A stretch of 64,000 nucleotides of DNA from an uncultured Dehalococcoidales bacterium (lineage in GTDB: Bacteria; Chloroflexota; Dehalococcoidia; E44-bin15). A program made the translations under genes and the position numbers. Where the stretch lies: NCBI GenBank assembly GCA_964443325.1, contig CAYUCL010000003.1:33961-97960 (forward strand), read 5' to 3'. The notes beneath the pieces are model-generated. The model saw nothing but the letters and a program-made list of their open reading frames with translations. It ran no database searches and was not told where the DNA came from. Positions 31,018 to 62,795 of this stretch are shown one piece after another; the first letter of the stretch is position 1, and every line of letters starts with the position of its first letter.

Positions 31018-31454
31018 GGATAACCTCCTTTCTAAAGCACTCGGTTGCCGTTTGGTCATCCATGGCCCAGGGAATTCGTGAGGAATCGCTCGGGGTGGGA
31101 TTTGCAAACCTTCAACCAGAGGAATAGTCTACCATAGAATTGTATGCATGTCAAGCCAGCGTACTCGTTCAGGTGACCGGTATCACCTCACCCTCCCCAC
31201 TTTCCTTGTTATTTTGACATGAACTCCTTCCTTGTCATTCTGAGTGCAGCAAAGAATCCCATGGCGCTCAGGACAGGCTCCGGCGAAGAATCTCGGTTTG
31301 GTAGAGACCCTTATGCATGCCCAGTGAAACAGTAGTGGCGGGTTTTAAACCCGCCCCTACAAAATGACATCCGCCCAATTAATTGGGCAACTACACTTAT
31401 CAACTCATACAATTGCCGTAGTTGCCTGATTTATCCGAAACATTGGCAAACAGG

Positions 31455-37772: not shown

Positions 37773-37805
37773 CTATGCCTTCTCCTCTCCATGGTATGCC
37801 AGCTC

Positions 37806-39008
37806 TCAGAGTACTGCACCCTTCTCCTTCATCACAATTATGTCATCCCATGTATAGCCCAGTTCCAACAGAATCTCTTCCGTTTGTTGACCCAGTTCTG
37901 GAGCCTTGCCTCTTATCTGGCCTGGCGTCTTGCTTAGATCGATAGCAGTCCCCACTACTTTGACTTCACCAACCTCCGGATCATCCAAAGTAACAATATA
38001 ATCATTTTCAATAATTTGTGGGTCCGAAGCTAGCTCGGTAAAGTACTTAACTGGCGCCCATGGAAACTGGTATTTCTCGAGGCGCTCGATCCATTCGCTC
38101 TGGATTTTAGTGAGAAATACTTCGTCCAATATAGTAATAAGAGCCACATTATTTTCACGTCTGGCCTCTGGAGAGTTGAATCTGGGGTCATCATTTAAGT
38201 GCTCAAGGCCCATTGCTTGACAGAATTCAACCCAACTGCGGTAGTCCTGAACCACTGCCAATTGTATCCACCTCTTGTCCTTAGTCTGGTACATACTATA
38301 CAGAGCGCCATCACCTTCATGGGGCAATCCAAACATGTCCTTCCCCGCAGCAATGGAAGTATCAATAACAGCGGACATAACCTTCATACAAGTACCCAGA
38401 AGTGATACATGTACCATCTGACCTTCTCCGGTTCGTTCCCGGTGAAAAAGGGCGAGCATTATGCTATATGCCAGAAATGTTGCCGCCGTATAATCACCAA
38501 AAGCCGGCGGGCACAGCGGTGGGCGGGAGCCAGGCTCAACAAAACCCGACACTAATGCAGATCTGGCAAAACCGGTAGCCTCAAAAGCACCCCGGTTCCG
38601 TGCTGGGCCCTTCAGGCCCCACCCAGTGCCAATAGCATAGATTAGCCTGGGATTGACTCTGGATAGAGTCTCATAATCCATTCCCAGCCTTTCCAATCCA
38701 CCCATCCTCAGGTTCGTTACAAAAACGTCTGACTTCTCAATGAGTTTGTATGCTACCTCGCGTGCTTTCTCATGATGTAAATCCATGGCAATGCTTTTCT
38801 TCCCCCGATTGGTTTGCTCAAAATAAGCCTTAAACTTGCCAATTGGCACTTCCCTCATGTTATCTATCCAGCGAATAGGCTCACCGCTTTGGGGATTCTC
38901 TATCTTGGTCACCTCAGCTCCCATTTCAGCGAGATAGGCAGCAGTCTGAGGGCCAAAAGCATATTGGGTCAAATCCAGAACCTTGATTCCTTCTAGAGGC
39001 ATGCTCAT
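37806..39008 (-). CDS. family III CoA-transferase (CaiB/BaiF family), tandem paralog
   Basis: LEGIKVLDLTQYAFGP..AAYLAEMGAEVTKIE motif. About 60-65% identical to the downstream paralog, separated by 33 nt. Confidence 0.8.
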   Translation of the reverse strand: MSMPLEGIKVLDLTQYAFGPQTAAYLAEMGAEVTKIENPQSGEPIRWIDNMREVPIGKFKAYFEQTNRGKKSIAMDLHHEKAREVAYKLIEKSDVFVTNLRMGGLERLGMDYETLSRVNPRLIYAIGTGWGLKGPARNRGAFEATGFARSALVSGFVEPGSRPPLCPPAFGDYTAATFLAYSIMLALFHRERTGEGQMVHVSLLGTCMKVMSAVIDTSIAAGKDMFGLPHEGDGALYSMYQTKDKRWIQLAVVQDYRSWVEFCQAMGLEHLNDDPRFNSPEARRENNVALITILDEVFLTKIQSEWIERLEKYQFPWAPVKYFTELASDPQIIENDYIVTLDDPEVGEVKVVGTAIDLSKTPGQIRGKAPELGQQTEEILLELGYTWDDIIVMKEKGAVL

Positions 39009-39877: not shown

Positions 39878-40126
39878 ATGAGCAGAATCATTTTAGAGAA
39901 GGTATTACTCTATCGAAAGGACGGAATGGTTCCCCAGGCCTTCATCTGGCGGGGCCGAGTCTACCGCATCACCAGCGTCATAAACTGGTGGCGAGAGCCC
40001 GGAGCCTGGTGGGAGGGGGAACCAGTACGCTCTTTTCTCCGGGTCACTGCTAAGAGGGAGACCGAAGGCGTATGCGACCTGTGCAGGGTGGGACAAGATT
40101 GGCTGCTGTACCGAATTTACGACTGA
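39878..40126 (+). CDS. small conserved-looking hypothetical protein (82 aa, Trp/Arg-rich) translationally overlapping the dnaE start
   Basis: MSRIILEKVLLYRKDGMVPQAFIWRGRVYRITSVINWWREPGAWWEGEP... Its stop at 40124-40126 lies inside the first codons of the DnaE ORF. Confidence 0.4.
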   Translation: MSRIILEKVLLYRKDGMVPQAFIWRGRVYRITSVINWWREPGAWWEGEPVRSFLRVTAKRETEGVCDLCRVGQDWLLYRIYD

Positions 40127-43100
40127 AGGAGTTCATTCACCTCCATGTCCATTCCCCATACAGCTTTCTCGACGGCGTATCCCCTATCGAGCGCCTTCTA
40201 CAGAAAGCAAAGCATTTCGGCATGCCTGCTATGGCCCTAACCGACCATAATAGCCTGACCGGAGCCATTCGCTTCTACGATAGGGCAAGGGAAATGGGCA
40301 TCAAGCCTATTATCGGCGCTGAGGTCGATGTCGAAGGTGGTTATCACCTGACCATTCTAGCCCAGGGTATCGAGGGGTATGCCAACCTGTGCCATCTTCT
40401 TTCCGAAGCCCACCTGGCCAAGCTCGATCCCCACCCGGCGGCTACCAAGGAGATGCTGGCCAGGCATTCCAGTGGTCTCACAGTCCTCTCCGGTTGCAAC
40501 AAAGGCGAGATTCCTAGCCTGGTCGCCAGGGGCCTCCCGGAAAAAGCGAAGGAAGCTGCAGCATTTTACCAGAGCATCTACCCGGACCGCTTCTACATCG
40601 AGCTTGTCTACCACCCCAACAGGGATGGCAGGCGCTCCATATATCGACTGCTGGAGTTCGCCAGGGAGCTATGTCTTCCCGTCGTCGCCACCAACGACGT
40701 TCACTATGCTGAGATGGAGGAATACGCCGTCCACGAACTCCTGGAATCTATCCGGCAGATTATTCCCATAGAGCAACTTCCGGGCCCCAGGACGGTGGAG
40801 CAGTACCTCAAATCCCCTACCGAGATGGCCGCCCTTTTCAGGGATATCCCTGAAGCCCTAAGCAACACGGTAGCGGTGGCCGAGCAATGCAATCTTGATC
40901 TCCCCCTGGGCGAGCCCAAGTTTCCCGTTTTCTCTCCTCCTGCCGGATACAGCGCGCAGAGTTACCTGAGGGAACTGACATATCAAGGAGCCTCGCGTAG
41001 GTATGGAAATCCCAGCACGGTGATCCTGGATCGCCTGAAGCACGAGTTTGAGGTTATTAGCCTACTGGACTTTGAGACCTATTTCTTAGTGGTGTGGGAT
41101 ATTGCCCGCTTCGCCAGGGAAAGAGGCATCCGCTACCAGTGCCGGGGCAGCGCCGTCAATAGCCTTGTAGTCCACTGCCTGGACATCAGCAATGTGGACC
41201 CGTTGGAGTACGATCTGCTCTTTGAGCGCTTCATGCACAAGGAGCGCCGCGAGATGCCAGATATCGATCTCGACTTTCAGCGCACCAGGCGGGATGAGGT
41301 GAAGGAATACATTACCAGCAAGTACGGCAGGAACAGCGTGGCGGCAGTGGCTACCATCAACACCTTCCAGGCCAGGAGCGCCATCCGGGAGGCAGCCAAA
41401 GCTCTCAACCTGCCTAAAAGTGCTTTAATAGGGCTTCAGGCAGGCGTCCGATGGCAGTCGGTAAAGGAGCTTGCAGCGTGCACCAATACTCTCCCCGAAT
41501 TGAAGACTAACCGAGCCCTCAGAAACCCGGTGTTCAGGGATTTTCTAAAGCTGTGCTCAGCCCTGGACGGTCTGCCCCGGCACCTGTCGGTGCACCTGGG
41601 TGGTCTGGTTATCAGTCCAGGCAGTCTTGCCGACTGGGTGCCACTGCAATGGTCCAGCGGCGGCGATGTCATCACTCAGTTCGAAAAGGACGACATCGAG
41701 CGTCTGGGCCTCATCAAGATGGATATCCTGGCCGTTCCCACACTGGACGTCATCGAGGACACGGTGGCTGAGGTGAAAAGAATCCGGGGCGTCGAGGTAA
41801 ACGTAGACTCCATCCCCCGAGACGATCCCGCAGTCTTTGCCATGCACCGGGAGGGGGACACCATCGGCTGCTTTCAGGTGGAGAGCCCGGCGCAACGGGA
41901 GATGGCAGGTAGGCTGCTTCCCGAATGCTTCGATGACCTGATACTGCTACTGGCTCTCATCCGGCCAGGACCCATGAAATCGAGGATGCACGAGAAATAC
42001 CTTAAAGTGAGACAGGGGCAACAGCCGCTGACCTATCTGGACAAAAGGCTGGAACCAGTGCTCAAGGAGACCCTGGGCCAGTTGGTCTACCAGGAGCAGG
42101 TGCTCCCACGAACTGGCGGGGATGAGCTACGCCGATGCCGACGGGCTGAGGCGGGCCATGACCCATGGACGCTCTCCCGAAGAGATGGAAAAGATACGCG
42201 AGGCTTTTATCTCCTCATGTCTGAGCAACAGCGTATCTAAGACAATTGCCCAGACAGCTTGGCAAGAGGTCTCAGCCTTTGCTGCATATGGCTTCCCCAA
42301 GGGTCATGCCGCCTCCTATGCCATTCCTGCCTATCAAACCTTGTGGCTTAAGTGCCATTATCTGCCGGAGTTCCTGGTCAGCGTCCTCAATAACCAACCC
42401 ATGGGCTATTATCCACCCTGGGTGTTGGTGCAGTATGCCGGGTGGAAAGGAATCGAGGTGCTGCCACCCGACATCAACATGTCCATGGATCGCTATTCCT
42501 TAGAGGATCGAGCTATCAGGATGGGGCTGTCTCAACTCAAGGGGGTCTCTAACCCAGCCTTGGCTTCTATACTCAGCGCCAAAAATAAGGATGGGCAATT
42601 CCGCAGTGTGGGGGACTTTCTGCTGCGAACAAACGTGCCCAAGTCAACCACTGAGGATCTCATCAAGGTGGGGGCCTTCGACTCCATTTGTGGTAACCGG
42701 TGCCAGCTTATATCCCAGCTAGATTCCCTGCTTACGAACAAGCAGAGGCGCAGGCATGGTACGCAGAATGAAATGATTCCCTTTGGCGAAGTTGGCAAGG
42801 AAAATCTCACCGATGCCTCAACTCCACCCATCGATGCTGCTCTGTGGCAGCACTACGAGCTTGACCTGCTGGGTCTTCCCATTAGCGGACACCCTCTGGA
42901 TTCGCTGGATGGCCGGATTAAGGGCATCACCAAAATCAAAGACCTGAAGGGGTTGCTAGCCAACCACCGGGTAAAACTTGCAGTGGGGGTTATCAGATAC
43001 CAGACCCCGCCTATCTGGGATGGAACCAGAGTTGTCTATATCTGCGCCGCGGACGAAACGGGCATTGTGGATATAACTCTCTTCTCGGACGCCCAGGAAC

Positions 43101-43246
43101 GCTCAGGTGAAGCTCTCTTCAAGGCAGGATGGCTCTTGGTTGAGGGAATTGTGCAGCGTCGAGGACTCCACGCACTGTCAGTGATAGCTTATCGTGTTGC
43201 CACCTTACAGCCCCCCGCTTCAAGTCAACGTAAAAAATGTTTTTAA
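40072..43246 (+). pseudogene. dnaE: DNA polymerase III alpha subunit (DnaE family, short form ending after the OB fold) interrupted by a +1 frameshift near 42100-42112
   Basis: ORF 40072..42240 carries the PHP domain (HLHVHSPYSFLDG) and polymerase core up to ...VYQEQVL. DnaE homology then continues in the +1 frame (HELAGMSYADADGLRRAMTHGRSPEEMEKIR..FAAYGFPKGHAASYAIPAYQTLWLKCHYLPEF..) as ORF 42122..43246. The combined length is about 1055 aa. Confidence 0.75.
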
Positions 43247-43483
43247 TTTGGCAACTATCCCTTGAAGGTAGGTATAATACAATGATAATGGGTAAAACAA
43301 ATAGGCTGGAGACCTTGCTCATTGCCTCTCAACCTATTTGCTATTGGGTTCTATATTACAGTCGATTGCTTTCCCATCAAGCTACCGCCCCACCAAGATT
43401 ATAGCACTATGATAAAATTTTTGACTAGAGAGCAATAAAATGATATGCTGACTTCCCTGAAAGGCCAAGAAGGGAGGCGCAGT

Positions 43484-44305
43484 ATGTCATTGGGTATAGT
43501 ATTCAAGGGACCCGAAGGCATTGTTTTAGCTGCTGATAGTAGGGTTACGCTTAACGCACATTTGCCAAACCAAAATTTAATCATTTCAGCTACGTTTGAT
43601 AATGCTACTAAGCTACTCAGAGTTAAGGGGCAAGATTATATCGGAGCAGTCACCTATGGGATGGGAGCTCTAGGAGAAGGAACTCCTCGAACCGCTCACA
43701 GTTTTATCCCAGAATTTGAGGCTAAGTTAAGTAATGAATCAGGGGATAGATTGAGTGTCCCAGATTTTGCAGATAAGATTAGTGAGTTTTTCTTGTCTCA
43801 ATGGACAACAAGCATGCCCAACAATTATCAAGGACCAGATATGGTATTTCTGGTAGGTGGGTTTGACGAAGGTTCTCCGTATGGGCGAGCCTTTGAGATT
43901 GGGATACCCTCTCGACCAACACCAAAAGAATGGCACGTAAATACTTTTGGGCCTGTATGGGGTGGGCAGCGAGAGTTCACAGACCGTTTAATACAAGGAT
44001 TTGACCCAAGAGTGCTAGATATAGTTAAGGATACATTTGGCTTATCTAATGACCAGCAGGTTGAATTACAAGATAAACTTAAACCGCTCAGCGTGCAAAT
44101 CCCTTATCCTTTTCTACCATTGCAGGACTGTGTTGACTTGTCTATCTTTTTAGTGAGAACTACTATGACTATTCAAACATGGCAAGTAGGTGTGCGGGGC
44201 GTAGGTGGTGCAATAGATGTCGCTACTATTACTCGAACTGATGGATTCAAGCCTGTGCAACTGAAAAGAGTAAGAGGTGAATCATCCAGTATGGAGGAAG
44301 ATTAA
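43484..44305 (+). CDS. proteasome beta-subunit-type Ntn-hydrolase homologue with Ser at the nucleophile position
   Basis: Start at the internal Met, which has a GGGAGG RBS. MSLGIVFKGPEGIVLAADSRVTL aligns with proteasome beta / HslV / Anbu N-termini (TTIVGV.YKDGVVLAADTRAT). Asp17 and a Lys about 40 are retained, and there is a C-terminal extension. Confidence 0.5.
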   Translation: MSLGIVFKGPEGIVLAADSRVTLNAHLPNQNLIISATFDNATKLLRVKGQDYIGAVTYGMGALGEGTPRTAHSFIPEFEAKLSNESGDRLSVPDFADKISEFFLSQWTTSMPNNYQGPDMVFLVGGFDEGSPYGRAFEIGIPSRPTPKEWHVNTFGPVWGGQREFTDRLIQGFDPRVLDIVKDTFGLSNDQQVELQDKLKPLSVQIPYPFLPLQDCVDLSIFLVRTTMTIQTWQVGVRGVGGAIDVATITRTDGFKPVQLKRVRGESSSMEED

Positions 44306-44665: not shown

Positions 44666-45181
44666 TTACTGCTGAGAATCCTTCTCCATCTCCTCCAGGA
44701 TGATTCTGGTTGTGAGCCTGGCTGTTTCCCCAACGAGCTTTGAGCAATAATCGAACATACCAAACTTCGTGGCTTCTTGTAGCTCATTAGGGTCATACAG
44801 GTTGAAAGTCCTGCCCATAAGCCTTTCTTGAATGTCGTAACACCGGCAAGTGCCATATTTTTCAACAAACTCGTCATGCAACCTTTTTGACAGTATATAG
44901 GATTTCAGCGGCTTCATCATATCGGCAAAATCCTTCCTTTCCCTGCCAAAAAGATAGCCTATCACTATAGCCCCTGCCGTGAGAGACCCACAAGTCCCAT
45001 CTCCGGTTAGCCCCAGCCCGTCAGCTAAACCACTCGCCGCCTTGAAAACATCTTCATTGTCAATATCAAGAGCATCGAAAATTCCCGCAATCGTAGTCTG
45101 TGCGCATCCAGTACATTCCCTTTCATACTTGCGCCCCCGCTCAAAGGCCTTATTTGAAATCTCTTCGATTGACTTTCCCAT
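44666..45181 (-). CDS. C_GCAxxG_C_C family (putative redox-active) protein
   Basis: CTGCAQTTIAGI motif plus downstream Cys residues. Start moved to the Met with an AAGGGGG RBS. Confidence 0.6.
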   Translation of the reverse strand: MGKSIEEISNKAFERGRKYERECTGCAQTTIAGIFDALDIDNEDVFKAASGLADGLGLTGDGTCGSLTAGAIVIGYLFGRERKDFADMMKPLKSYILSKRLHDEFVEKYGTCRCYDIQERLMGRTFNLYDPNELQEATKFGMFDYCSKLVGETARLTTRIILEEMEKDSQQ

Positions 45182-45344
45182 ATAATTCCCCCTTACTGTT
45201 TTTTCAAACAACATACTTCGATGAGAAATACTTATCTATGCCACACATAATTGTACCATCTCACCAGCATTAATGACCAAGCTAAATGCCCAGGATCTAC
45301 CACCGCTTATTCTAATCCCCTTGCACGGCCAAGCGTCCACATGC

Positions 45345-46784
45345 CTATGGCAACTTATACACTGGCTCTGTAGGTAGATCCTTGAAATCAGGATGGTCCG
45401 TAGGAAGTCCCAGAGAATGCCTGGCCGCAGCCTTATATCGCTCCCAATCGGCCTGCATATAAACCGTCATTCGCTGAGCCGCCAAAGACCCCTCAGCATG
45501 AATGGTAAGCGCTCCCATGAAAGACGAGCCCTCACGGTTTACCGCATTCATAAGTTGTATCCTCTCCTCAGCAGGATACTCCGCAGCGCCCTGAAGATAC
45601 TTCTCCAGATAAGGACGGATTTCGGGATTGTCCCAGTCCTTCAGCGAAGGCATGGTTGCTGGAAGCCCACCAGTTATGTCCTGGAGATACTTGACTGCCT
45701 GATGCCAATTTTCGGCAAACCAGAACTTAGCACAATTGCTATAGACCGGATTGGGCGCCGCCAGACCTATCTCCGGGTCTATTGTAGCGTCTAAAGCTGC
45801 TGCCTTGCCCAGAGCCTCATTTATCTCAGCATACATAGCAAGCCAGGCTAGCATGTCCATAATACGGGTAGCACGAGTGAGTCCATTGTGTTCTGCCATT
45901 AACATGGCAGTCCCTGCAAGCGTCTGGAGCATAACCGTCTTGTAGGTGGCGGCAGTAAGTCGATGGTATCGCGCGAATGACATCGCTACCTCCCTTGAAA
46001 ACTGCCACTCCCCGGCGAGGAAAACCTTGTCCCAGGGAACAAAAACATCGTCAAAGACAATCATCGGGTGTGCCCCAGGCTGCCCCTGATCCGACATAGT
46101 CCCAATAAAAACAACCCCTTTGGCGTTGCATGGTACGGCACAGGCCACAGCATAATCTTTGGCCGGCTCATTGTGGTTGCGTGAGGGCAATACTACTAGC
46201 CAATTGGCATAAATGGCGTCGGTGATGTGAACCTTGGCACCCCTGATGACGATACCATCGCTGCTTCGGTCAACGATCCTGACATAGAAATCTGGATTCG
46301 CTTGCCTTGGGTCTTCGGGGTGCAAGCTCCTGTTGCCTTTCACATCGGTCATTGTAGCAACAATGCCAGGGTCATGTTTCTGACAATAATTGCGGAATTC
46401 TTCAACGTGCTCGGCATAATTGGTGCCTATCGCCAGGTCCATCTTCCTGGCGCTGTAGGCAATTCCGTTCAGTCCATCAATTCCGGTGAACTTCGTACCT
46501 CCGGCAGCCGAGCGAAACAGCGTCTGAATGATCAGTCTCCGTCTCTGAAGATCTTCACCAGTCTTAGGCACGTGATAAACAAAAGGATACTCTTCCCCAT
46601 CCTTCACCACATTGAACAGCTCACGGTTCTCAGGCTGCAAAGCTATATAGTATTCTGAAGCTGCGTGCTCCACTGCTCTCTTGTAAGCTGGAAGGGAAGG
46701 TACATCCGATACCCTCTCCCCATCCTGGTAAACTACCCTTCCATCTCTCAGGTCTTCTACAAACTGCTCAGGCGTCCTAAGCAT
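45345..46784 (-). CDS. HpaB / 4-hydroxybutyryl-CoA dehydratase family flavoenzyme, paralog of 31516..33003
   Basis: 479 aa. Conserved blocks DFYVRIVDRS.DGIVIRGAK.H.T, IVFDDVFVPW.KVF..GEWQFSR and TIHAEGSLAAQRM are shared with the other copy. AAGGAGG RBS. Confidence 0.65.
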   Translation of the reverse strand: MLRTPEQFVEDLRDGRVVYQDGERVSDVPSLPAYKRAVEHAASEYYIALQPENRELFNVVKDGEEYPFVYHVPKTGEDLQRRRLIIQTLFRSAAGGTKFTGIDGLNGIAYSARKMDLAIGTNYAEHVEEFRNYCQKHDPGIVATMTDVKGNRSLHPEDPRQANPDFYVRIVDRSSDGIVIRGAKVHITDAIYANWLVVLPSRNHNEPAKDYAVACAVPCNAKGVVFIGTMSDQGQPGAHPMIVFDDVFVPWDKVFLAGEWQFSREVAMSFARYHRLTAATYKTVMLQTLAGTAMLMAEHNGLTRATRIMDMLAWLAMYAEINEALGKAAALDATIDPEIGLAAPNPVYSNCAKFWFAENWHQAVKYLQDITGGLPATMPSLKDWDNPEIRPYLEKYLQGAAEYPAEERIQLMNAVNREGSSFMGALTIHAEGSLAAQRMTVYMQADWERYKAAARHSLGLPTDHPDFKDLPTEPVYKLP

Positions 46785-47046
46785 GATACCTCCTTAGTCT
46801 GTTCTTAATTATGCACATATTTTTAAAAAACAACCCTAACGTTATTTTCGCGATATGACCCCCTCCCTTCATGTATCTCTATGAGTCAAGGCATCGATAT
46901 TGTGGTATTTCCAAGTTGCCTTGTCAATTATTTGTATTTACCCACACCAACGTTATACTATCATACCACTATCCGAAATCTTTTTAAAAAAAGAATGAGC
47001 CCCCCGACTTCACCGGAGGGCCCCATTCAATATTCCCAGCCTATCT

Positions 47047-49578: not shown

Positions 49579-49678
49579 TTACCTTACCTCCCGGTTTTTA
49601 CTCACGCCCCTGCAATCAGGGTAATCACCACTAGACTGCCACCAGCTTGCTCTTTTCTCGCTACCCCCCAACCCTGCG

Positions 49679-50035
49679 TCACTTCATCAACTGCCTTTGG
49701 TGACGACTATACCGCGGGTCGAATGCCTCTCCAATATCAGTGTCGATAAGCTCCATCTCTTTATAATACTTACACTTGCTGGCATCCATCTTTATATCTG
49801 ACATCAAGTTCACTTCACCATCCAGCACAAACACCGGCGGCTCGCTCTCAATCTGAGAACCCATTTTCAAAACGAGACAGTGACCGGCGGTAAGTCCGGC
49901 AGAAGCGAAAAAGTTCTTGCATTTCCCGCATGCCTTTTCGGGTATATACTCCCTCTCTTCTACAGTTTTGCCCAGCTCTTGCATACTCAAATAGCCCTGC
50001 TTCACCTGATCCCATTCACTCTTTCTCCTCGGCAT
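49679..50035 (-). CDS. small Cys-containing protein (118 aa), candidate Fe-S small subunit (BssC/AssC-like position) of the GRE
   Basis: ATG at 50035 with an AAGGAGG RBS. Four Cys residues (CGKC...GHC...SKC). Immediately upstream of the GRE gene on the same strand, 101-nt gap. Confidence 0.35.
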   Translation of the reverse strand: MPRRKSEWDQVKQGYLSMQELGKTVEEREYIPEKACGKCKNFFASAGLTAGHCLVLKMGSQIESEPPVFVLDGEVNLMSDIKMDASKCKYYKEMELIDTDIGEAFDPRYSRHQRQLMK

Positions 50036-50080
50036 GCCACCCTCCTTTCCGTTATCTCCATATATCAAAACTGTAATGCT

Positions 50081-50110
50081 ATTTTGAAATAACCATGCTG
50101 GCTTGTCAAT
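50081..50110 (-). promoter_or_regulatory. candidate promoter for the small-subunit/GRE operon (minus strand TTGACA, 18-bp spacer, CAAAAT)
   Basis: TGTCAA at 50105-50110 and ATTTTG at 50081-50086 on the plus strand, about 45 nt upstream of the ATG at 50035. Confidence 0.3.
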
Positions 50111-50255
50111 TCTTTCCTATTAGCTAAGCCAATATTAAATGATTTTGTCATAATCTAACTATTCTGGATAAATGTGATGTGAGGTCAAGGCATTAACACT
50201 TGAGGTTGGGTTTCTAACTGCTATTCACATTTCCCTTAGATTTGAGGCCTTGTTG

Positions 50256-52648: not shown

Positions 52649-53542
52649 ATGAATCATAAATGGCAGCATCGTTTTGTGAATACAAATGGAATCCGTATGC
52701 ACTACGTTGAGCAGGGAGAGGGTTTCCCCGTGCTCCTCCTCCATGGTTTTCCCGAGCTTTGGTATTCATGGAGATACCAGATACCGGAGTTGGCCAATGC
52801 CGGCTTCCACGCCATTGCACCCGACCTGCGCGGCTATGGTGAGACAGACAAGCCTGAGGGCATCGAGTCCTATGACATCCATCATTTGATTGGAGACCTG
52901 GTAGGTTTACTTGATGCTCTTGAGTTGGAGCGCGCAGTGATTGTAGGGCATGATTGGGGTGGCATTATTACCTGGCAGATGGCTTTGATATGTCCAGAGC
53001 GCGTTGAGCGAGTGATCTCACTGAATACTCCTTTCCAACTTCACGGCCCCGTGCGGCCAACAGAGGCCTTCAGCCAAACCCCTGACGGCCGGTTCAACTA
53101 TATCATCTATTTTCAGCAGCCGGGACAGGCCGAAGCGGATATTGAGCCTAATATAGAGGCCTTTTTGGAAACGACGATGCGCCGTCTCGCCACAGAAGAA
53201 AGCTTCATTACCGAGGAGACCCTCAAGGTCTTTTCTAATGCCTTCCACAAAGGGGGCCTAACTGGCCCGATTAATTACTATCGCAACTTCGACCGCAACT
53301 GGGAGACAACCGCTCATCTCACAGGCCGCAAAGTCACTATGCCCGCACTCATGATTTGCGCCGAAAATGACTCGATACTCACACCACAAATGACGAATGG
53401 TATGGAACGTCATGTTCCCAATCTCACCACTCGCCTGGTTAAGAATTGCGGGCACTGGACCCAGCAAGAGCGACCCGACGAGGTCAACCGCCTGATCATA
53501 GAATTCCTTCACGACCTGAAGAGGAGGCGAGACAATGTTTGA
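52649..53542 (+). CDS. alpha/beta hydrolase, epoxide hydrolase / haloalkane dehalogenase-like
   Basis: HGFPELWYSWRYQ motif and GHDWGG nucleophile elbow. The start at the internal Met is preceded by a G-rich RBS. Confidence 0.75.
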   Translation: MNHKWQHRFVNTNGIRMHYVEQGEGFPVLLLHGFPELWYSWRYQIPELANAGFHAIAPDLRGYGETDKPEGIESYDIHHLIGDLVGLLDALELERAVIVGHDWGGIITWQMALICPERVERVISLNTPFQLHGPVRPTEAFSQTPDGRFNYIIYFQQPGQAEADIEPNIEAFLETTMRRLATEESFITEETLKVFSNAFHKGGLTGPINYYRNFDRNWETTAHLTGRKVTMPALMICAENDSILTPQMTNGMERHVPNLTTRLVKNCGHWTQQERPDEVNRLIIEFLHDLKRRRDNV

Positions 53543-54563
53543 ACTAATATTTGATGAAAAGAAATGCTTGGCTTGCCAGACTTGTGATTGTCTCACCAAG
53601 TGCCAGTATATGGATATAGACATAGATACAGCGAAAACAGAGATGAGGAAGATAATCAACGGTGAAGATTCTTTCGTATTACACCAGTGCGTAACATGCT
53701 ATGCCTGCGAGGAATACTGCAAAATGGGGAACCACCCCTTCTATCTAATCGCTGAGCGCCAGGAAGAACTGGGCATACCGCCTACGCCCAAGCCTGTTAT
53801 CAGGCAATGGGTTCAATTGGCTATCCCGCAGATGGGAGAACTCAAGATTGAACAGGTTAAGGAGCCGGTTCTCAGTATGTGCATGTTCGGTCAGCTTGCT
53901 GGTTCAATCCAGGGGAAACTGTTTGACGGTGTCTCCATTCTACCAAGGGAGAATCAAGAAGGGATGCAATTCTTCTGTCAGTTGATGTACCTGCACTTTG
54001 CCAGGACTTCCGTAATAAAAGAGAGGCTCCCGAGGATAATAGAGAACATCACCAAGCACAATATCACAGAGCTCATATGCTTCCACGACGAGTGCTACGG
54101 TACCTTTACCTCATACGCACCTGCCGTGGGCATCGAAGTCCCGTTCAAACCAATTCATTTCTTTGAGTATCTGTACAACAGGCTAGTGGAACTCAAGGAC
54201 GACATAAAACCGCTGAATTTGAAGGTGGCTTATCAGCGTCCCTGCTCGTCCAGGCTTTCCCCAGAAAAACTCCACTTCGTCGACGATATCTTCAACCTGA
54301 TAGGGGTGGAGAGCGTCAAAAGAGAGTATGTTGGCGAGAATGCCCTATGCTGCGGAGCACCTATCAGAGGACAGAGAAAGGAAGGAAGCCGTCAACTCGC
54401 TATTGATTTGCAGCGGAGAAACATACAGGATATGATTGACGCTGGGGCCGAATTCTGCGTTTTCAACTGCCCCTATTGCTTCCTTACCCTGTCGGAGCGC
54501 GTTACCAAGAGCGGCTTGAAGCCCGTCTTTATGGGCGACCTTTGCCGGCTCGCCGTTGGCTAG
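53535..54563 (+). CDS. Fe-S oxidoreductase with two ferredoxin-type Cys clusters and a C-terminal CCG domain (HdrD/GlpC/LutA-like)
   Basis: CLACQTCDCLTKC, CVTCYACEEYC, LCCGAP and CVFNCPYC motifs. ATGTTTGA overlap with the upstream hydrolase gene. Confidence 0.7.
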   Translation: MFELIFDEKKCLACQTCDCLTKCQYMDIDIDTAKTEMRKIINGEDSFVLHQCVTCYACEEYCKMGNHPFYLIAERQEELGIPPTPKPVIRQWVQLAIPQMGELKIEQVKEPVLSMCMFGQLAGSIQGKLFDGVSILPRENQEGMQFFCQLMYLHFARTSVIKERLPRIIENITKHNITELICFHDECYGTFTSYAPAVGIEVPFKPIHFFEYLYNRLVELKDDIKPLNLKVAYQRPCSSRLSPEKLHFVDDIFNLIGVESVKREYVGENALCCGAPIRGQRKEGSRQLAIDLQRRNIQDMIDAGAEFCVFNCPYCFLTLSERVTKSGLKPVFMGDLCRLAVG

Positions 54564-54588
54564 AAACTAGCATAATGGAGATGATACT

Positions 54589-55968
54589 GTGGATTCAATA
54601 TTTAAATCATTAGCTGAAATAGTTGGAGAAAGTCACGTCTCCAGCCAACCAGAGGAGCTTTATATCTATTCTTATGACCTTGGCACGACTGAGCCTCATC
54701 GTCCGGACTATATAGTGGCGCCGAGGACGACTCATGAAGTGCAAGAAATAGTTAAGCTAGCAAATAGGGGGAAAATCCCGGTGGTTCCTCTTGGAGGCGG
54801 GTTGTCCCTAGCTGGTCTGGCTGTGCCTCAGCGGGGAGGCATCGTGCTGGACCTAAAGAGGATGGACACAATAATAGAGGTAAATGGAAAGGCAAGGTAT
54901 GTAGTTGTCGAGGCTGGCGTTTCACAGGGGCAGCTAATATCCTACCTGGAGAAGTACCACCCCAAACTGAGACACTCAGAGCCACAGGCACCAGGTCCAG
55001 CCACGATTGCGGGCAATGTAGCGATACACGGTCAAGGCGATCTGGCTCAGCCGTATGGCTTCAATTCCGATATGGTGAACGGGCTAGAGGTTGTCTTACC
55101 AACAGGAGAGTTGTGCAAAATCGGCTCCTGTTCAGTATCTCCCATTTGGTTCACCCTACACCCCTTGCCCGATTTAGGTCTCTTCCTCGGATGGTCTGGC
55201 ACCACGGGCATCATTACCAAGCTGTCGCTTAAGCTTTTCCCATCGAAAAGGATCAGGGAAGTGGAGCAGTTTATAGTCGAGGATGCGGAGCTGGTTCCAG
55301 AAATTATATACAAAATCAGTCACACAGAGATGGCTGAAGATATATTCGCCGGAACTCAAACGACCATTCCTGCTCGTATGGGTCTCCACCATGTAACTAT
55401 GTATATCACCGCTGATTCGGAAAAGGAACTCGAATTCAAGACAGGGTTAATCTGGGATGACGCACTCGGGGAATATATTCGGAATGGAGATGGGGGGTTC
55501 GTCGATTTACCACCCCCTATAAAAGCTCGCTTTACCGAGAGACCCAGTATGCTGCTGTCTACAGTCGCTGATGCCAAAGAGGGTGGAGGCTTTGAATATG
55601 TCGGGGGCATTATGCCAATGGAAACCTACCCTGAGTGCTGCAAGCGAGGGGCTGAGATCTGTTCCAGACACGATATTCCTCAACTGTTGATCGCGCGGGT
55701 TATTGGACGGTCTCACTCTATGATGTTTGCCTGGGCATATGTATTCAATCGCGCTGACCTTGAGAGCATCAGGCAAGCGAGGGAAGCCGTACATGAAACG
55801 GACGACCTTGTCCTGGAGTTGGGTGGGGCTATCTGGAAACCCGGCGTTTATGGACAGAGGCTAATGATGCAACGAATTGACCCTACTACTCTCAAACTCA
55901 TGGAGATGGTAAAGGGGCTTCTCGACCCTAACGGCATTATGAACCCTGGAAATTGGGAGGCAGTATAA
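54589..55968 (+). CDS. FAD-linked oxidase (GlcD / D-lactate dehydrogenase family)
   Basis: FAD_binding_4 region PRTTHEVQEIVKLANRGKIPVVPLGGGLS and a C-terminal FAD-oxidase_C region. GTG start. Confidence 0.8.
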   Translation: MDSIFKSLAEIVGESHVSSQPEELYIYSYDLGTTEPHRPDYIVAPRTTHEVQEIVKLANRGKIPVVPLGGGLSLAGLAVPQRGGIVLDLKRMDTIIEVNGKARYVVVEAGVSQGQLISYLEKYHPKLRHSEPQAPGPATIAGNVAIHGQGDLAQPYGFNSDMVNGLEVVLPTGELCKIGSCSVSPIWFTLHPLPDLGLFLGWSGTTGIITKLSLKLFPSKRIREVEQFIVEDAELVPEIIYKISHTEMAEDIFAGTQTTIPARMGLHHVTMYITADSEKELEFKTGLIWDDALGEYIRNGDGGFVDLPPPIKARFTERPSMLLSTVADAKEGGGFEYVGGIMPMETYPECCKRGAEICSRHDIPQLLIARVIGRSHSMMFAWAYVFNRADLESIRQAREAVHETDDLVLELGGAIWKPGVYGQRLMMQRIDPTTLKLMEMVKGLLDPNGIMNPGNWEAV

Positions 55969-56147
55969 TTGTTCTTGCAGACCGGTAAGATCTCTGCCTG
56001 CCGCACAGAGACAATAGCAGGTAGCCAACCCCTTGAATTCGTAGAATAATTTGACATAGTATTGTTCTCTGATAGAATGGTGCTGCTTGCCAGTTAGGAT
56101 ATTGCAGTAGTCTATCAATGTAGTAACACAAGCGAGGGGGTGAATTC

Positions 56148-57194
56148 ATGTATGAATTAAAATTTGATGAGAGGAAATGCATAGCCTGTAAGACTTGTGA
56201 TTGCCTCACCAAGTGCCAGTATATGGATATAGACAGGGATACAGCAAAAACAGAGATGCGCAAAATAATCAATGGTGAGGATTCCTTTGTATTACATGAT
56301 TGCGTAACATGCTATGCCTGCGAGGAGTACTGTAAAATGGGCAACCACCCCTTCTATTTGATCGCTGAACGCCAGGAAGAACTAAATATACCGCCTATGC
56401 CCAGGCCTCTTATCAAACAAGCTGTCCAATTGGGCATCCCCTGGAGGGGAGATCTCAAGATTGAGGAGGTCAAGGAGCCTGTGCTAAGTATGGGTATGTT
56501 CGCTCCGCTTGCCAATTTAATACAGGGGAAGCTTTTTGAAGGTCTCTCTCTCCTATCAGTGGATCCTCGAACGGCGGTTCATCTTTTTTGTCAGCTCATG
56601 TACCTGCACTTCGCCAGGACATCGGTAATAAAGGAGAAATTGCCAGGCATCATAGAAACTATCGCCAAACACAATGTCAAAGAGGTCATATTTTTCCATG
56701 ACGAGTGCTACGGTACCTTTACCTCATATGCCCCTGCGGTTGGCATTGAAGTCCCGTTCAAATCTATTCATTTTCTCGAGTATCTCTACAACAGGCTAGT
56801 GGAACTCAAGGATGATATCAAACCGCTGAATCTTAAAGTGGCTTACCAGCGCCCCTGCTCATCCCGTCTTTCCTCGGATAAGCTCCACTTTGTCGATGAT
56901 ATCTTCAACCTGATAGGGGTAGACGGCGACAGAGAGTATGTTGGCGAGAATGCCCTGTGCTGTGGAGGTACGATCATAGGGCAAAGATATGAAGGAAGAT
57001 ATGAACTCGCTGCTGATGTACAAAGGAGAAATATTGAAGATATGGTGAACGCTGGCGCTGAGCTTTGTGTCTTTAATTGCCCTGCTTGCTACGATACCCT
57101 AAGACGTTTGGTCACCAGAAATGGCATATGGCCCATATTTATGAGCGATCTTTGCCGACTCGCCATAGGCGAGCAACCTGCAGGATGGAGGTGA
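56148..57194 (+). CDS. Fe-S oxidoreductase with CCG domain, paralog of 53535..54563
   Basis: Same Cys motifs, about 80% identical. Confidence 0.7.
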   Translation: MYELKFDERKCIACKTCDCLTKCQYMDIDRDTAKTEMRKIINGEDSFVLHDCVTCYACEEYCKMGNHPFYLIAERQEELNIPPMPRPLIKQAVQLGIPWRGDLKIEEVKEPVLSMGMFAPLANLIQGKLFEGLSLLSVDPRTAVHLFCQLMYLHFARTSVIKEKLPGIIETIAKHNVKEVIFFHDECYGTFTSYAPAVGIEVPFKSIHFLEYLYNRLVELKDDIKPLNLKVAYQRPCSSRLSSDKLHFVDDIFNLIGVDGDREYVGENALCCGGTIIGQRYEGRYELAADVQRRNIEDMVNAGAELCVFNCPACYDTLRRLVTRNGIWPIFMSDLCRLAIGEQPAGWR

Positions 57195-57198
57195 TATT

Positions 57199-58569
57199 AT
57201 GGATTCCATATACAAAGCCCTGGTTGAAATAGTGGGGGAGGACCATGCTTCCACCGAGCAGGAGGAGCTTTACATCCATTCTCGCAGTCTAGGGACGGTA
57301 GAGCCCCACCAGCCCGACTATGTAGTGGCGCCGAGGACAACAGAGGAAGTTCAACAAATAGTTAAGCTGGCAAATAGAGAGAAAATTCCCGTAGTTCCAC
57401 TGGGGGGTGGATTATCTCTAACCGGTCTAGTCATGCCTCTGCGAGGAGGCATTGTGCTAGACATGAAAAGGATGGATACAATAATAGAGGTAAACGAAAA
57501 GGCAAGGTATGTAATTGTCGAGGCTGGCGTTTCACAGGGTAAACTAATATCCTGCCTGGAGAGGTATCATCCTAATCTGATGCACTCAGAGCCTATGGCA
57601 CCAGCCCAAGCCACAATTGCGGGCAATGTGATGATACATGGTCAAGGTGACCTGGCGCAGCCGTATGGTTTTAACTCTGACATGGTTAACGGACTTGAGG
57701 TTGTACTACCAACAGGAGAGGTGTGTAAAATAGGCTCCTGTTCGGTATCTCCCTATTGGTTCACAGCACACCCTTTACCTGATTTAGGGCTCTTCCTCGG
57801 ATGGTTTGGCACCACAGGCATCATTACCAAGCTGTCGCTTAGGCTTTATCCCTGCAAAAAGATAAACGGTGTAGATCGATTCTTGGTAGAGGATGCTGAG
57901 CTAATTCCAGAGATCCTACTCAAGATCACTCACACAGAGATGGTGGGAGATCTGGTTTCTTCCATCCAAGGACTCCCACTTGCGGTTAGGGGAATCCACA
58001 TCATAACAATCAACATAAACGGAGATTCCGAGAAGGAGATCGAGTTTAAGAGGCAATTGATCCGCGAAGATATCCTAGGGGAATATATTCGGAATGGGGA
58101 TTGCGGATTTATGGGTACGACGCCAGATTTGAGAACAGGGCAACAGAGACCTACGATTACAACGGTCGCTGACATTAAGAGGGGTGGTGGATTTGAATAT
58201 GTTGGAGCAATACTACCGGTGGATACATATCCCGAGTGTTGCAGAGAAGGTGAGGCGATCTCTTCAAGACACGACATTATCTACACTTTAGGAGGACGAG
58301 TTATCGGAAGGTCTCACGCCATGATGTTTTTCTGGTCATATGCATTCAATCGAGCAGACCCAGAAAGCGTCAGACAGGCAAGGGAAGCACTACATGAATC
58401 AGATGAGCTTGCCCTTAAACTAGGAGGGGTCCCCTGGAAGCCAAGTGTTTATGGACAGAAGTTAATTATGGAGAAGATGGAACCAAATACCCTCGAATTG
58501 ATGAGGAAAATAAAGGAGCTTCTCGACCCTAACGGAATTATGAACCCTGGAAATTGGGAGGTAATGTAA
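57199..58569 (+). CDS. FAD-linked oxidase (GlcD family), paralog of 54589..55968
   Basis: About 75% identical, same domain layout. Confidence 0.8.
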   Translation: MDSIYKALVEIVGEDHASTEQEELYIHSRSLGTVEPHQPDYVVAPRTTEEVQQIVKLANREKIPVVPLGGGLSLTGLVMPLRGGIVLDMKRMDTIIEVNEKARYVIVEAGVSQGKLISCLERYHPNLMHSEPMAPAQATIAGNVMIHGQGDLAQPYGFNSDMVNGLEVVLPTGEVCKIGSCSVSPYWFTAHPLPDLGLFLGWFGTTGIITKLSLRLYPCKKINGVDRFLVEDAELIPEILLKITHTEMVGDLVSSIQGLPLAVRGIHIITININGDSEKEIEFKRQLIREDILGEYIRNGDCGFMGTTPDLRTGQQRPTITTVADIKRGGGFEYVGAILPVDTYPECCREGEAISSRHDIIYTLGGRVIGRSHAMMFFWSYAFNRADPESVRQAREALHESDELALKLGGVPWKPSVYGQKLIMEKMEPNTLELMRKIKELLDPNGIMNPGNWEVM

Positions 58570-59759
58570 TGGCTCTTGCAGATTATAAATACAAAGATGT
58601 CATACACAGGTGCTTCAGGTGTGGCTACTGTAAGTTTCCAAGTAACTGGATGGAGGTGAATAACTGCCCAGCTTATGCCAGATTCCGTCTGGAAAGCTAC
58701 TCCACAGGGGGGCGGTTGTGGCTGATAAGAGCCTGGCTAAATGATGAAATAGAGTGGACGGACCATCTTGCCCAGATTGTATATTCATGCGCCGCATGTA
58801 AAAACTGTGTTGAGCAATGCCCATATCGCTTCCATGATGATATCGTCGACATGATCATAGCAGCAAGGAGTGAGATGGTTGAGAGAGGTTCAATACCATC
58901 TGTTGTCAAGGAGTTTTTAGAGAATATTCAGAGGCAGGGAAATCCGTATGGGAATGCTAGATCAAAGAGGGGCGAATGGGTTGAGGGAATGGGAATAAAG
59001 CAATATGAGGGACAGGAATATCTGTATTATGTTGGCTGTGTAGGGTCGTATGATACCAGAGCCAAAGAGACAGCGAGAACGCTTGGAGAGGTGCTGCTAA
59101 AAGCCGGCGTATCTTTTGGGGTGATGGGCAATGATGAAAATTGCGATGGTAACGAGGTGAGCAAGCTCGGCGAGGAGAGTTTATTCCAGTCATTAGCTGA
59201 GGACAACATCCAGCAATTCAAAGATTTAGGGGTAGAGAAGATTGTTGCCCTCTCTCCGCATTCCTACAACGCCATTAAAAACGACTATCCTATGTTTAAT
59301 GGTAGCTTTGAGGTATTTCACTACACACAACTTCTTCGAGACCTTATCAAAGGGGGAAGGCTAGATATTTCCAGTGGATTCGATGCCAGGGTTACCTACC
59401 ATGACCCCTGTTTCCTCGGCCGGTGGAACAAGGAGTATGAAGCTCCAAGACAAGTGCTAAACGCTATTCCTGGAGTCGAACTGGTAGAGATGGAGAGGAG
59501 TAGAGAGGGCGCCCTGTGCTGTGGTGGCGGCGGCGGCAACTTCTATACCGATTTTCTTGGCGGGAGCGAGGATAGCCCGGCAAGAATCAGAATCCGCGAA
59601 GCCTGCGCTACGGGAGCCAGCATAGTTGCGACAGCCTGTCCCAACTGTATGACCATGCTGGAGGATGCTGTCAAAGCGGAAGGGCTTGAAGAGAGTATTA
59701 AAGTAAAGGATATCTCTGAAATTGTAGCTGAGGCTTGCCTGGCAAAAAGGGCTGATTAG
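58569..59759 (+). CDS. GlcF-like Fe-S protein (two 4Fe-4S ferredoxin motifs plus two CCG domains)
   Basis: CFRCGYCKF...NCP, CAACKNCVEQCP, CCGGGGGNF and CPNCM motifs. ATG at 58569 with a GGAGGT RBS (TAATG overlap with the upstream gene). Confidence 0.7.
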   Translation: MALADYKYKDVIHRCFRCGYCKFPSNWMEVNNCPAYARFRLESYSTGGRLWLIRAWLNDEIEWTDHLAQIVYSCAACKNCVEQCPYRFHDDIVDMIIAARSEMVERGSIPSVVKEFLENIQRQGNPYGNARSKRGEWVEGMGIKQYEGQEYLYYVGCVGSYDTRAKETARTLGEVLLKAGVSFGVMGNDENCDGNEVSKLGEESLFQSLAEDNIQQFKDLGVEKIVALSPHSYNAIKNDYPMFNGSFEVFHYTQLLRDLIKGGRLDISSGFDARVTYHDPCFLGRWNKEYEAPRQVLNAIPGVELVEMERSREGALCCGGGGGNFYTDFLGGSEDSPARIRIREACATGASIVATACPNCMTMLEDAVKAEGLEESIKVKDISEIVAEACLAKRAD

Positions 59760-59837: not shown

Positions 59838-60620
59838 ATGGATATAGTGGTAGCTATAAAACAGGTGCCAGATACTTCAGAAGCGGTGGATGTAGTGGAA
59901 ATCGATGCATCCGGAAGGGATATAAATAAAGAGGCGCTGGTTTCCAAGATAAACGATTGGGACGAGTACGCTTTAGAGGAAGCAGTACAGTTGAAGCAGA
60001 AGCTAGGAGGAACTGTTACCGCGGTAACGGTGGGAGCAAGTGAATGGGATGATATCCTGAGAAGAGCATTAGCTATGGGTGCTGACAGGGCGATTAGAAT
60101 CGATGAAGATGCAGCTTCCATGGACTCCAACACTGTAGCCAAGATTCTGACAGCCGTTATCATCCATTTGCCCTATGACCTAGTAATCTTCGGTGCACAA
60201 TCAGAAGATTTCGGTAGCGGTCAACTTGGCTGCATGGTTGCTGAGATGCTTGATATTCCGCATGCCACCCTCGTGGTCAGCCTCCAGATGGATGAGGGAG
60301 AGGTTCGAGTAAGCCGAGAGCTAGAGGGTGGCGCGCTTGAGTTGTATACCCTGAAGCTTCCTGCGCTTCTGACTATCCAGACTGGTATCAATCGGCCAAG
60401 GTATGTCTCCTTTGCCAGCATTAAAAAGGCAAGGGAGAAGGAATTGAAGGTGATCTCGCTCAACGAGCTGGGCTTGTCCCGCGATGCATTAACTCCACTG
60501 GTAATATTGGAGAAATTAGAGTTAACGCCCACAGGTAAAAAGGCAGAGCTAATATCCGGTTCGGCTGAAGAGACTGCGGGCAAACTGGCGATGATCCTGA
60601 ATGATTCGGGGGTTATCTGA
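59838..60620 (+). CDS. etfB: electron transfer flavoprotein beta subunit
   Basis: MDIVVAIKQVPD N-terminus and EtfB fold length of 260 aa. Confidence 0.85.
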   Translation: MDIVVAIKQVPDTSEAVDVVEIDASGRDINKEALVSKINDWDEYALEEAVQLKQKLGGTVTAVTVGASEWDDILRRALAMGADRAIRIDEDAASMDSNTVAKILTAVIIHLPYDLVIFGAQSEDFGSGQLGCMVAEMLDIPHATLVVSLQMDEGEVRVSRELEGGALELYTLKLPALLTIQTGINRPRYVSFASIKKAREKELKVISLNELGLSRDALTPLVILEKLELTPTGKKAELISGSAEETAGKLAMILNDSGVI

Positions 60621-61595
60621 GTGGCTGAGATACTGGTAGTTGTCGAACATAGAAATGAAAATTTGGCCGATGTTTCTCTTGAGATGCTTTCCAAAGGGAG
60701 GCATTTGGCTGACCACGTTAGTGCTGAATTGCTGGCCGTCATCATCGGCAAGGATGTTAACAGGTATGCGCCACGGCTTGCCCAGTGGGCAGACAAGGTC
60801 CTCGCAGTGAAGAATGATGAACTGGAGGATTCGCAAGCTGAGCCCTACCAGAAGACATTGGCTCCCATCATAAAAGAGAGAAAACCAAAGCTTGTCTTGA
60901 TAGGTCATAGCTCCTTTGGAATGGATTTGGCTCCCGCACTGACGGTCGATGTGGGAGCACCCCTGGCTACAGATTGCACAAATATAGCTGTAGAAAACGG
61001 AACGATTACGGTAACAAGGGCGATATACAATGGCAAGGTGAATGCGGTCTACTCATTTGCTCCATCTGAAACGGTGATAGTTACTGGTCGTCCGGGTGAA
61101 TTCCCCGTTGAGGAGGGTCAGAAAGGGGGCAGTGTGGAGGAAATTGATTACCTCCTGGACGAAGAGTTTGATTACAAGAGTTTCGAGGGATACATTGAGC
61201 CTGAGGTAAGTGATATAGATATTACCAAATCAGAGGTCTTGATCGCCGTCGGCAGGGGAATAAAAGATAAGGGAAATATCGAATTGGCCGAGGAGTTAGC
61301 CAACGCATTGGGAGGAGTGCTCGCCTGTTCCAGGCCATTGGTAGATTATGGATGGTTACCGTCTGGTCATCAGGTAGGCCTGTCCGGCAAGACGGTAAAG
61401 CCAAAGCTCTATATTGCACTCGGCATAAGCGGTGCCTTCCAACACATGGTTGGTATGAGGGGCTCGAAGATGATTGTGGCCATCAACAGGGATGCAAAGG
61501 CTCCCATTTTTGCCGATGCTAACTACGGGATAATAGATGACATCCTCAAGGTTGTTCCCATCCTCACACAAAGAATAAACGACCTCAAATCCTGA
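60621..61595 (+). CDS. etfA: electron transfer flavoprotein alpha subunit
   Basis: C-terminal FAD-binding signature [17 protein letters not shown]. Directly abuts etfB. Confidence 0.85.
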
Positions 61596-62664: not shown

Positions 62665-62795
62665 ATATCTCCTTTCTTCAACTCTTTGGTAGCATGTCAA
62701 ATAACTGACACGCTTTTAAGCAGCCTCGTCTTGCAATTTACCTCGCATTGCAGGGCACCATCAAAACCCGGCAATAGTCCTCGGCCACTACTAAC

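Follow-up and report, generated by a model that had tools for sequence, protein, structure and literature searches.

A beta-alpha gene pair of an alkane-type fumarate-adding glycyl radical enzyme, with no activase, gamma or delta gene within 64 kb, in a Dehalococcoidales bacterium

In a 64,000-nucleotide stretch of DNA from an uncultured Dehalococcoidales bacterium (contig CAYUCL010000003.1 of assembly GCA_964443325.1; hereafter the window), a gene for a glycyl radical enzyme (GRE) is preceded by a gene for a small protein with four cysteines. We identify the large protein as an intact, fumarate-adding alpha subunit of the alkyl-type X-succinate synthases and the small one as a homolog of MasB, the Fe-S-type accessory beta subunit of the MASS enzyme of Azoarcus sp. 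HxN1. The 64 kb encode no activase; as one is indispensable for formation of the glycyl radical, it would be needed from elsewhere. With moderate confidence, we read the locus as the beta-alpha module of an alkane-type fumarate-adding GRE, of the MASS or alkylsuccinate synthase (ASS) kind, which relies on an activase, and probably on gamma and delta subunits, encoded elsewhere. The kind of enzyme is already known; what is new here is the gene organisation.

The small and the large subunit

The region 49679..50255 consists of a minus-strand small open reading frame (ORF) and its upstream sequence, which extends to where a glycosyltransferase gene ends. This ORF (49679..50068) has 129 codons when counted from its first TTG and 118 when counted from the ATG at 50035. 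We favour the ATG as the start of the gene because 26 aligned homologs of 114-123 residues begin level with it, mostly with MPRR or MPRK. This agrees with an earlier description of the stretch made without database searches (the sequence-only reading), in which the protein before the GRE had 118 residues, four cysteines in the pattern CGKC..GHC..SKC and an ATG start behind an AAGGAGG ribosome-binding site (RBS).

The same reading had taken as its template the bss operons of benzylsuccinate synthase (BSS), in which gamma precedes alpha and beta follows it. That gene order is inapplicable, as the upstream protein is a beta of the MasB type. In a sequence search of the PDB it matches MasB (9O8U_B) at E = 9.7e-15, with query residues 4-116 on chain residues 3-114, and it scores 166 bits against a profile of the beta family. 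The masB gene encodes MASS-beta, which is HiPIP-like and binds its [4Fe-4S] cluster through Cys32, Cys35, Cys51 and Cys86 (PMC12358834). These ligands, spaced in the same CX2CXnCXnC manner, align with C36, C39, C53 and C88, the only cysteines of the window protein; the four are invariant across 27 beta homologs, and by homology the protein is predicted to bind a [4Fe-4S] cluster through them.

Given that the 118-residue protein does not match the Pfam family BssC_TutF (PF08201), that it is twice the length of a gamma subunit and that it matches MasB over its full length, we reject its identification as a BssC-like gamma. The PF08201 model itself performs as expected, matching the canonical gamma of a related operon (locus L008) at 5.9e-13. 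No other Pfam model and no NCBIfam model matches the window protein, and none of the small-subunit chains of BSS appeared in the PDB search at E up to 10. Compared with the small subunits of fumarate-adding enzymes, as the sequence-only reading had proposed, the protein thus falls with MasB. An AlphaFold2 model from a 27-sequence alignment (mean pLDDT 54, pTM 0.40) was too poor for a fold search. The beta family is very small, with 44 clusters at 90% identity among 5.8 billion proteins and 28 representatives at 50% identity among 1.84 billion, and all named database entries of its members that we encountered read 'hypothetical protein'. That MasB-type beta subunits are without a Pfam or NCBIfam model is a point for annotation.

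In MASS, a loop of beta (residues 40-47) plugs the hydrocarbon channel, and the N-terminal helix of beta rests on the helix-loop-beta(-1) gate of alpha (PMC12358834). The window beta would gate the hydrocarbon channel of its own alpha in the same way. Its plug loop, between the second and third cysteines (C39-C53), is two residues shorter than that of MASS; homologs differ in the length of this loop, and the window's subgroup has the shortest.

The alpha subunit contains a PFL-like domain (PF02901, 1.6e-119) and a Gly_radical domain (PF01228, 1.4e-28). Its best match in the PDB is MasD of MASS (cryo-EM structure 9O8U; PMC12358834) at 1193.7 bits, followed by the benzylsuccinate synthase alpha BssA/TutD at 493.9 bits and by all other GREs at 328 bits or less; it reaches no NCBIfam equivalog cut-off. 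We mapped its residues onto MASS from the printed alignment, in which the PDB chain numbering equals the native numbering plus 12, as verified on Cys477 and Arg492. With roles in catalysis and substrate binding as given by the structure paper (PMC12358834), the residues retained are the catalytic, thiyl-forming Cys477 (C480 in the window), the fumarate-binding Arg492 (R495), the fumarate-contacting Glu690 (E694), Tyr194 (Y190) and Thr598 (T602), and Trp185 (W180) and Phe600 (F604), which shape and gate the alkane pocket. All seven are invariant in the 14 alphas of the window's clade, described below, and nearly so in 73 canonical alphas. The sole change among the MASS active-site residues checked is conservative, Phe192 being replaced by Y188. 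The Gly and Cys loops are the same as those of MASS, and Gly818, in an RVAGYS motif, aligns with a conserved glycine in every sequence covering that position. From the conserved active-site positions and Gly818 we therefore conclude that the large protein is an intact alkyl-type X-succinate synthase alpha subunit, as the sequence-only reading had supposed in calling the GRE a fumarate-adding enzyme. The substrate would be alkane-like.

BSS (bssDCAB or tutEFDG; PDB 4PKC and 5BWE) adds a hydrocarbon to fumarate, the chemistry class to which the window system is also assigned; like that system it requires an activase, and it is a GRE of several subunits, its Fe-S subunits being HiPIP-like. However, the window alpha reaches only 494 bits with its BSS counterpart, and no sequence similarity to BssB or BssC could be detected in the small protein.

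A two-gene unit and the genes missing around it

Beta and alpha, and no other gene, lie between a promoter-like site and a terminator-like hairpin, each gene with an RBS of its own (Table 1); as consensus-level predictions, these signals would make the pair a bicistronic unit. The TTGACA and CAAAAT boxes that the sequence-only reading had proposed as a promoter are present, but the spacer between them is 17 nt and not the 18 nt it gave. Such promoter-like sites number 8 in the region, against 3.7 expected from shuffles. Past alpha, the stem of the hairpin begins about 18 nt beyond the stop codon; the hairpin folds at -22.7 kcal/mol (z = -2.06 against shuffles) and is followed by UUCUUUUUUU.

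Table 1. Features of the beta-alpha locus in window coordinates
Feature	Position	Strand	Remarks
Promoter candidate, sigma-70-like, TTGACA-17-CAAAAT, upstream of beta	50081..50109	-	10/12 consensus matches; consensus match only
RBS AAGGAGG of beta	50041..50047	-	5 nt before the beta ATG; read directly from sequence
Beta gene, MasB/MASS-beta type, 118 aa	49679..50035	-	C36, C39, C53 and C88 are predicted [4Fe-4S] ligands
Beta-alpha spacer, 100 bp	49579..49678	-	contains alpha RBS GGGAGG; read from sequence
Alpha (catalytic) subunit gene, alkyl-type X-succinate synthase, 843 aa	47047..49578	-	predicted: Gly818 radical site, Cys480 catalytic, Arg495 fumarate binding
Gap between alpha and the next gene, 262 bp	46785..47046	-	no small-subunit ORF; contains the terminator-like hairpin
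Intrinsic-terminator-like hairpin with U-tract	46987..47023	-	12-pair stem, 8 G-C pairs; scan and folding
Second promoter-like site, ahead of the HpaB-like gene	46927..46899	-	separate AAGGAGG RBS too

The alkane-type enzyme has three accessory subunits, beta, gamma and delta, and an activase (PMC12358834). As in strain HxN1 (masBCDE and masG), beta lies upstream of alpha in the window, but there is no masC (gamma) between the two, no masE (delta) after alpha and no masG in the 64 kb; the likely host also differs, being a Dehalococcoidia-like member of the Chloroflexota rather than a betaproteobacterium. The beta-alpha spacer could not accommodate a gamma gene of about 58 codons, as the gamma genes of canonical operons need some 170-200 bp. 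In the gap downstream of alpha, where no beta-sized ORF had been seen, the longest ORFs on the coding strand indeed have 31 and 21 residues, neither with a CxxC motif. The module is incomplete, as first proposed; measured against the alkane-type template, though, it is two small subunits that are missing and not one.

For a phmmer (--max) search of the six-frame translation of the window, we drew queries from two operons, the canonical deltaproteobacterial one of L008 and the Chloroflexota one of L003; they comprised activase, beta, gamma, delta and 's62', another small conserved protein. The search recovered beta (1e-31) and alpha (E = 0) alone, the rest lying at E of 0.14 or above, so that gamma, delta, activase and 's62' were all absent. 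Iterated profile HMMs built from 94 loci (65 beta, 55 gamma, 86 delta-like, 32 s62 and 51 activase sequences) gave no further match in this translation for gamma, delta-like, s62 or activase. In frame segments of at least 80 residues the CxxxCxxC motif occurs only in two CCG-domain proteins and one antisense segment, and a Pfam scan of the window ORFs of at least 150 residues, minus a few overlapping shadow ORFs, found no Radical_SAM or Fer4_12 match. The motif scan, Pfam, phmmer and the activase profile are thus at one with the earlier statement that the 64 kb hold no radical-SAM activase. A 110-residue ORF elsewhere in the window (30730..31128, minus strand) has four CxxC pairs (CVEC, CLQC, CASC and CSDC) and is of the small zinc-ribbon type; in the profile search it was unrelated to delta.

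The missing genes might have been lost by misassembly or misbinning of a real operon. The source is uncultured, and in a related locus (L016) two tandem alphas have identical C-terminal 700 residues, a recent duplication or an assembly artefact, which suggests that collapsed or duplicated assemblies may occur in the family. Against such a loss, three independently assembled metagenome contigs (L013, L014 and L015, from three JGI samples) carry 100% identical proteins and jointly reproduce the order PlsY, family 2 glycosyltransferase (GT2), beta, alpha, HpaB-like, with the GT2-beta-alpha and alpha-HpaB-like junctions both the same as in the window. In addition, the beta-alpha layout recurs in at least eight other assemblies. 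We consider an artefact of this kind, which the sequence-only reading had allowed for in the form of a rearranged assembly, to be very improbable.

The locus might instead be a silent or decaying remnant, a paralogous beta-alpha pair that has fallen out of activation or use. The lack of activase, gamma and delta within 64 kb agrees with this, as do the flanking genes: their functions, housekeeping or other, are unrelated, and none of the eight non-identical beta-alpha loci compared shares them. Yet both ORFs are intact, the catalytic and cluster-ligand residues are all conserved, both genes have good RBSs, and the promoter-like site and the terminator-like hairpin flank the pair. Identical copies occur in the three metagenome samples, and the two genes have been kept together in locus L010, at 87% identity for alpha and 84% for beta. 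A remnant is, in our view, improbable.

Related loci and the supply of the missing subunits

Related loci were collected with beta homologs, and a scan of GTDB representative genomes with an alignment of alphas added 78 more. The nearest alphas in the GTDB representatives, 79-89% identical, are from metagenome-assembled genomes (MAGs) of Dehalococcoidales, Dehalococcoidia and Chloroflexota. A neighbour-joining tree of 91 alphas, with 43%-identical GREs as its root, places the window alpha in a basal clade of 14 alphas, 66-87% identical to it, which come mostly from Chloroflexota/Dehalococcoidia MAGs with a few from Thermodesulfobacteriota, Spirochaetota and 'Deltaproteobacteria' MAGs. Beta adjoins alpha in most loci of this clade, an activase adjoins it only in L003, and gamma or delta stands next to none of the 14 alphas. 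The reduced layout is therefore not peculiar to this contig but recurs across a clade of related loci.

Canonical loci are organised differently. Where the flank is long enough, gamma directly precedes most canonical alphas, and the operons of Desulfobacterota, including Desulfatibacillum alkenivorans and Desulfosarcina alkanivorans, run activase-(beta)-gamma-alpha-delta-(beta)-zinc-ribbon protein, often ending with a MoxR-like ATPase. The ass clusters of D. alkenivorans and other Desulfobacterota (L028, L061, L027 and others) belong to the same family as the window pair, with alphas 62-70% and betas 41-49% identical (65-69% for the alphas in Desulfatibacillum and Desulfosarcina genomes), but they hold the full set where the window has only beta and alpha. 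Several alpha copies per genome are usual there too, and in multi-copy genomes orphan alphas and gamma-alpha paralogs are common among canonical alphas. Within the Dehalococcoidia, several assA variants per MAG have already been published (PMC7673041). One Dehalococcoidia MAG has a canonical complete operon (L055), and one Dehalococcoidales MAG holds the beta-alpha loci L018 and L022 together with L041, in which a gamma stands among several alpha copies.

Two further observations concern the canonical loci. The deltaproteobacterial MAG CSMAG_2994 has at least nine alpha loci, mostly without a nearby accessory gene (L054, L060, L062, L066, L067, L069, L074 and L082). In many canonical operons two activase-like genes stand in tandem, the second with about half the activase-profile score of the first (L029, L036, L039, L042, L043, L045, L056, L061, L063, L094-L098, L100 and L108), and in most of these a short zinc-ribbon ORF of the delta-like kind either overlaps the first activase gene or lies just ahead of it, in the layout d-E-E-b-g-A.

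The one clade member with an adjacent activase is L003, which with L021 comes from Chloroflexota MAG67 (GCA_034189315.1; alpha 78% and beta 63-65% identical to those of the window). The order is again beta-alpha with no gamma between. However, an activase follows directly after alpha in L003, and then zinc-ribbon and gamma-like proteins, whereas in the window alpha is followed by the hairpin and an unrelated HpaB-like gene. Because of this member, the window's clade demonstrably uses an activase. No MasE-type delta was found at the L003 locus.

Near the beta-alpha-activase operon of L003 lies a gene for a 109-residue four-cysteine protein (12458..12787; CGYC...GIC...QCPKF) with a long C-terminal extension. 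It is weakly gamma-like (E about 1e-3 to 1e-5 against gammas, with no PF08201 match) and, judged by these scores, may be a divergent gamma. We had also considered the 117-residue zinc-ribbon protein that follows the L003 activase as a novel delta fusion; it has full-length homologs in many canonical operons and is thus a conserved gene. Proteins of this kind, of about 90-130 residues, in which a zinc ribbon at the N-terminus is followed by a helical C-terminal part, are encoded after delta in most canonical ass/mas operons and after the activase in L003 (11524..11877 in L003, 12881..13237 in L028, 12792..13289 in L034, and some 30 other loci). They belong to no Pfam family and are not among the subunits assigned in the MASS structure paper (PMC12358834).

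How, then, would the window alpha be served? We propose that a radical-SAM activase encoded elsewhere in the genome acts on it in trans, and that gamma, for solubility, and delta, for gating of the glycyl radical domain, are probably supplied in trans from a complete operon. Beta alone would travel with alpha, since it would have to match the substrate channel of each alpha paralog, and the activase, gamma and delta could be shared between paralogs. A beta matched to each alpha fits the co-variation of beta and alpha identities (Spearman 0.79 over 48 pairs), the variation in plug-loop length and the gating role of beta in MASS. We favour supply in trans because the clade alphas barely differ from canonical ones: three fixed substitutions and an insertion of one residue (G186) are all that sets the two groups apart, and their comparison gave no sign of a remodelled gamma-binding surface. 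A further reason is that recombinant alpha by itself is insoluble, MASS and BSS alphas without gamma ending in inclusion bodies, and that activity in E. coli depends on masE (PMC12358834, PMC13450708).

Several points weigh against this proposal. Our evidence covers the 64-kb window, so that we infer, rather than see, the supply of activase, gamma and delta in trans. The absence of gamma next to any of the 14 clade alphas, together with several clade loci that have 5-10 kb of flank and no activase, also fits a lineage that dispenses with gamma and delta. When metagenome contigs were scanned with an alignment of activases, none of the 600 stretches listed came from the three samples in which the identical alpha occurs, and none held a new operon of the window's clade. 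Lastly, the promoter and terminator are predicted at consensus level, and expression and activity of the pair are likewise predictions.

The activase could thus be encoded elsewhere or the system could be a reduced one, and both of the explanations offered by the sequence-only reading remain live. A truly reduced alpha-beta alkylsuccinate synthase would need neither gamma nor delta and only an activase, elsewhere or beside alpha as in L003; we regard this as possible but on the doubtful side. Such a lineage would explain why no clade alpha has an adjacent gamma or delta and most have an adjacent beta, where canonical alphas with enough flank mostly have gamma immediately upstream. It would also suit L003, the clade's activase-bearing complete locus, which is without a MasE-type delta and whose gamma-like candidate misses BssC_TutF, and it is consistent with the position of the clade, basal to the canonical operons in the neighbour-joining tree. 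Against a two-subunit enzyme count the insolubility of MASS and BSS alphas deprived of gamma and the need for masE, cited above, as well as the few fixed differences between clade and canonical alphas, among which nothing points to the loss of a hydrophobic gamma patch. Furthermore, L003 retains its zinc-ribbon and gamma-like proteins, and partial modules are common among canonical paralogs too. For these reasons our preference stays with a beta-alpha module served in trans. That the enzymes of the basal, mainly Chloroflexota/Dehalococcoidia alkane-type lineage as a whole function with alpha and beta alone, gamma and delta being dispensed with, seems to us more doubtful still.

Neighbouring genes and significance of the locus

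Directly after the alpha terminator lies an HpaB/4-hydroxybutyryl-CoA-dehydratase-family gene (45345..46784, minus strand), followed by a gene for a C_GCAxxG_C_C redox protein (44666..45214, minus strand); a second gene of the HpaB family is found at 31516..33003 (minus strand), and both are under all NCBIfam cut-offs. We considered a functional link of alpha with the HpaB-like and C_GCAxxG_C_C genes and rejected it, as the hairpin and a separate promoter-like site intervene and the arrangement does not recur in non-identical loci: in a comparison of 12 loci it was found downstream of none of eight other beta-alpha pairs and only on the identical metagenome contigs. Rfam, tRNA and GC-composition scans found nothing relevant.

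The window is rich in beta-oxidation-type genes, with four enoyl-CoA hydratase/isomerase genes (2460..3311, 3403..4251, 8746..9546 and 9676..10587) and a 3-hydroxyacyl-CoA dehydrogenase gene (61768..62700). Two adjacent family III CoA-transferase genes of 400 codons each (36570..39008, minus strand) recall the BbsE/BbsF pair that activates benzylsuccinate and, by this analogy, might activate alkylsuccinates. On the plus strand, 53535..59759 contains a tandem duplication of a CCG-domain protein and an FAD-linked oxidase (53535..54563/54589..55968 and 56148..57194/57199..58569), followed by a CCG/Fer4_8 protein and then by electron transfer flavoprotein (ETF) beta and alpha (59838..61595). From its gene content, this CCG/FAD-oxidase/ETF stretch looks like an electron-bifurcating or lactate/glycolate-oxidase-like module. 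DnaE, the alpha subunit of DNA polymerase III (40072..43246, plus strand), is encoded in two overlapping ORFs, the first (40072..42240) with PHP, DNA_pol3_alpha and finger domains and the second (42122..43246) with HHH_6; a frameshift, an error in sequencing or a gene that is really split could account for this. Next to it, a 286-residue ORF (43445..44305, plus strand) begins with a proteasome-beta/Ntn-hydrolase-like N-terminal motif (GIVFKGPEGIVLAADSR) and has no Pfam match at 1e-5.

The only structurally characterised alkane-activating GRE has three accessory subunits, the roles of which are still unclear. A 2026 review of the superfamily states that no benzylic/allylic-type succinate synthase with a different number of subunits has so far come to light, and it names reconstitution of active enzyme as a major bottleneck (PMC13450708). 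If the lineage described here did work as an alpha-beta enzyme, beta would be the only accessory subunit obliged to co-evolve with the catalytic subunit, and the pair would offer a minimal system for reconstituting anaerobic alkane activation. More generally, the recurrent beta-alpha layout makes it testable whether beta is the specificity or gating partner that matches each alpha, and whether gamma, delta and the activase are shared between paralogs or dropped. It is, in effect, a natural experiment on what the accessory subunits of alkane-activating GREs do. The locus also adds to the evidence that Dehalococcoidia-like bacteria of anoxic sediments carry several alkylsuccinate synthase paralogs.

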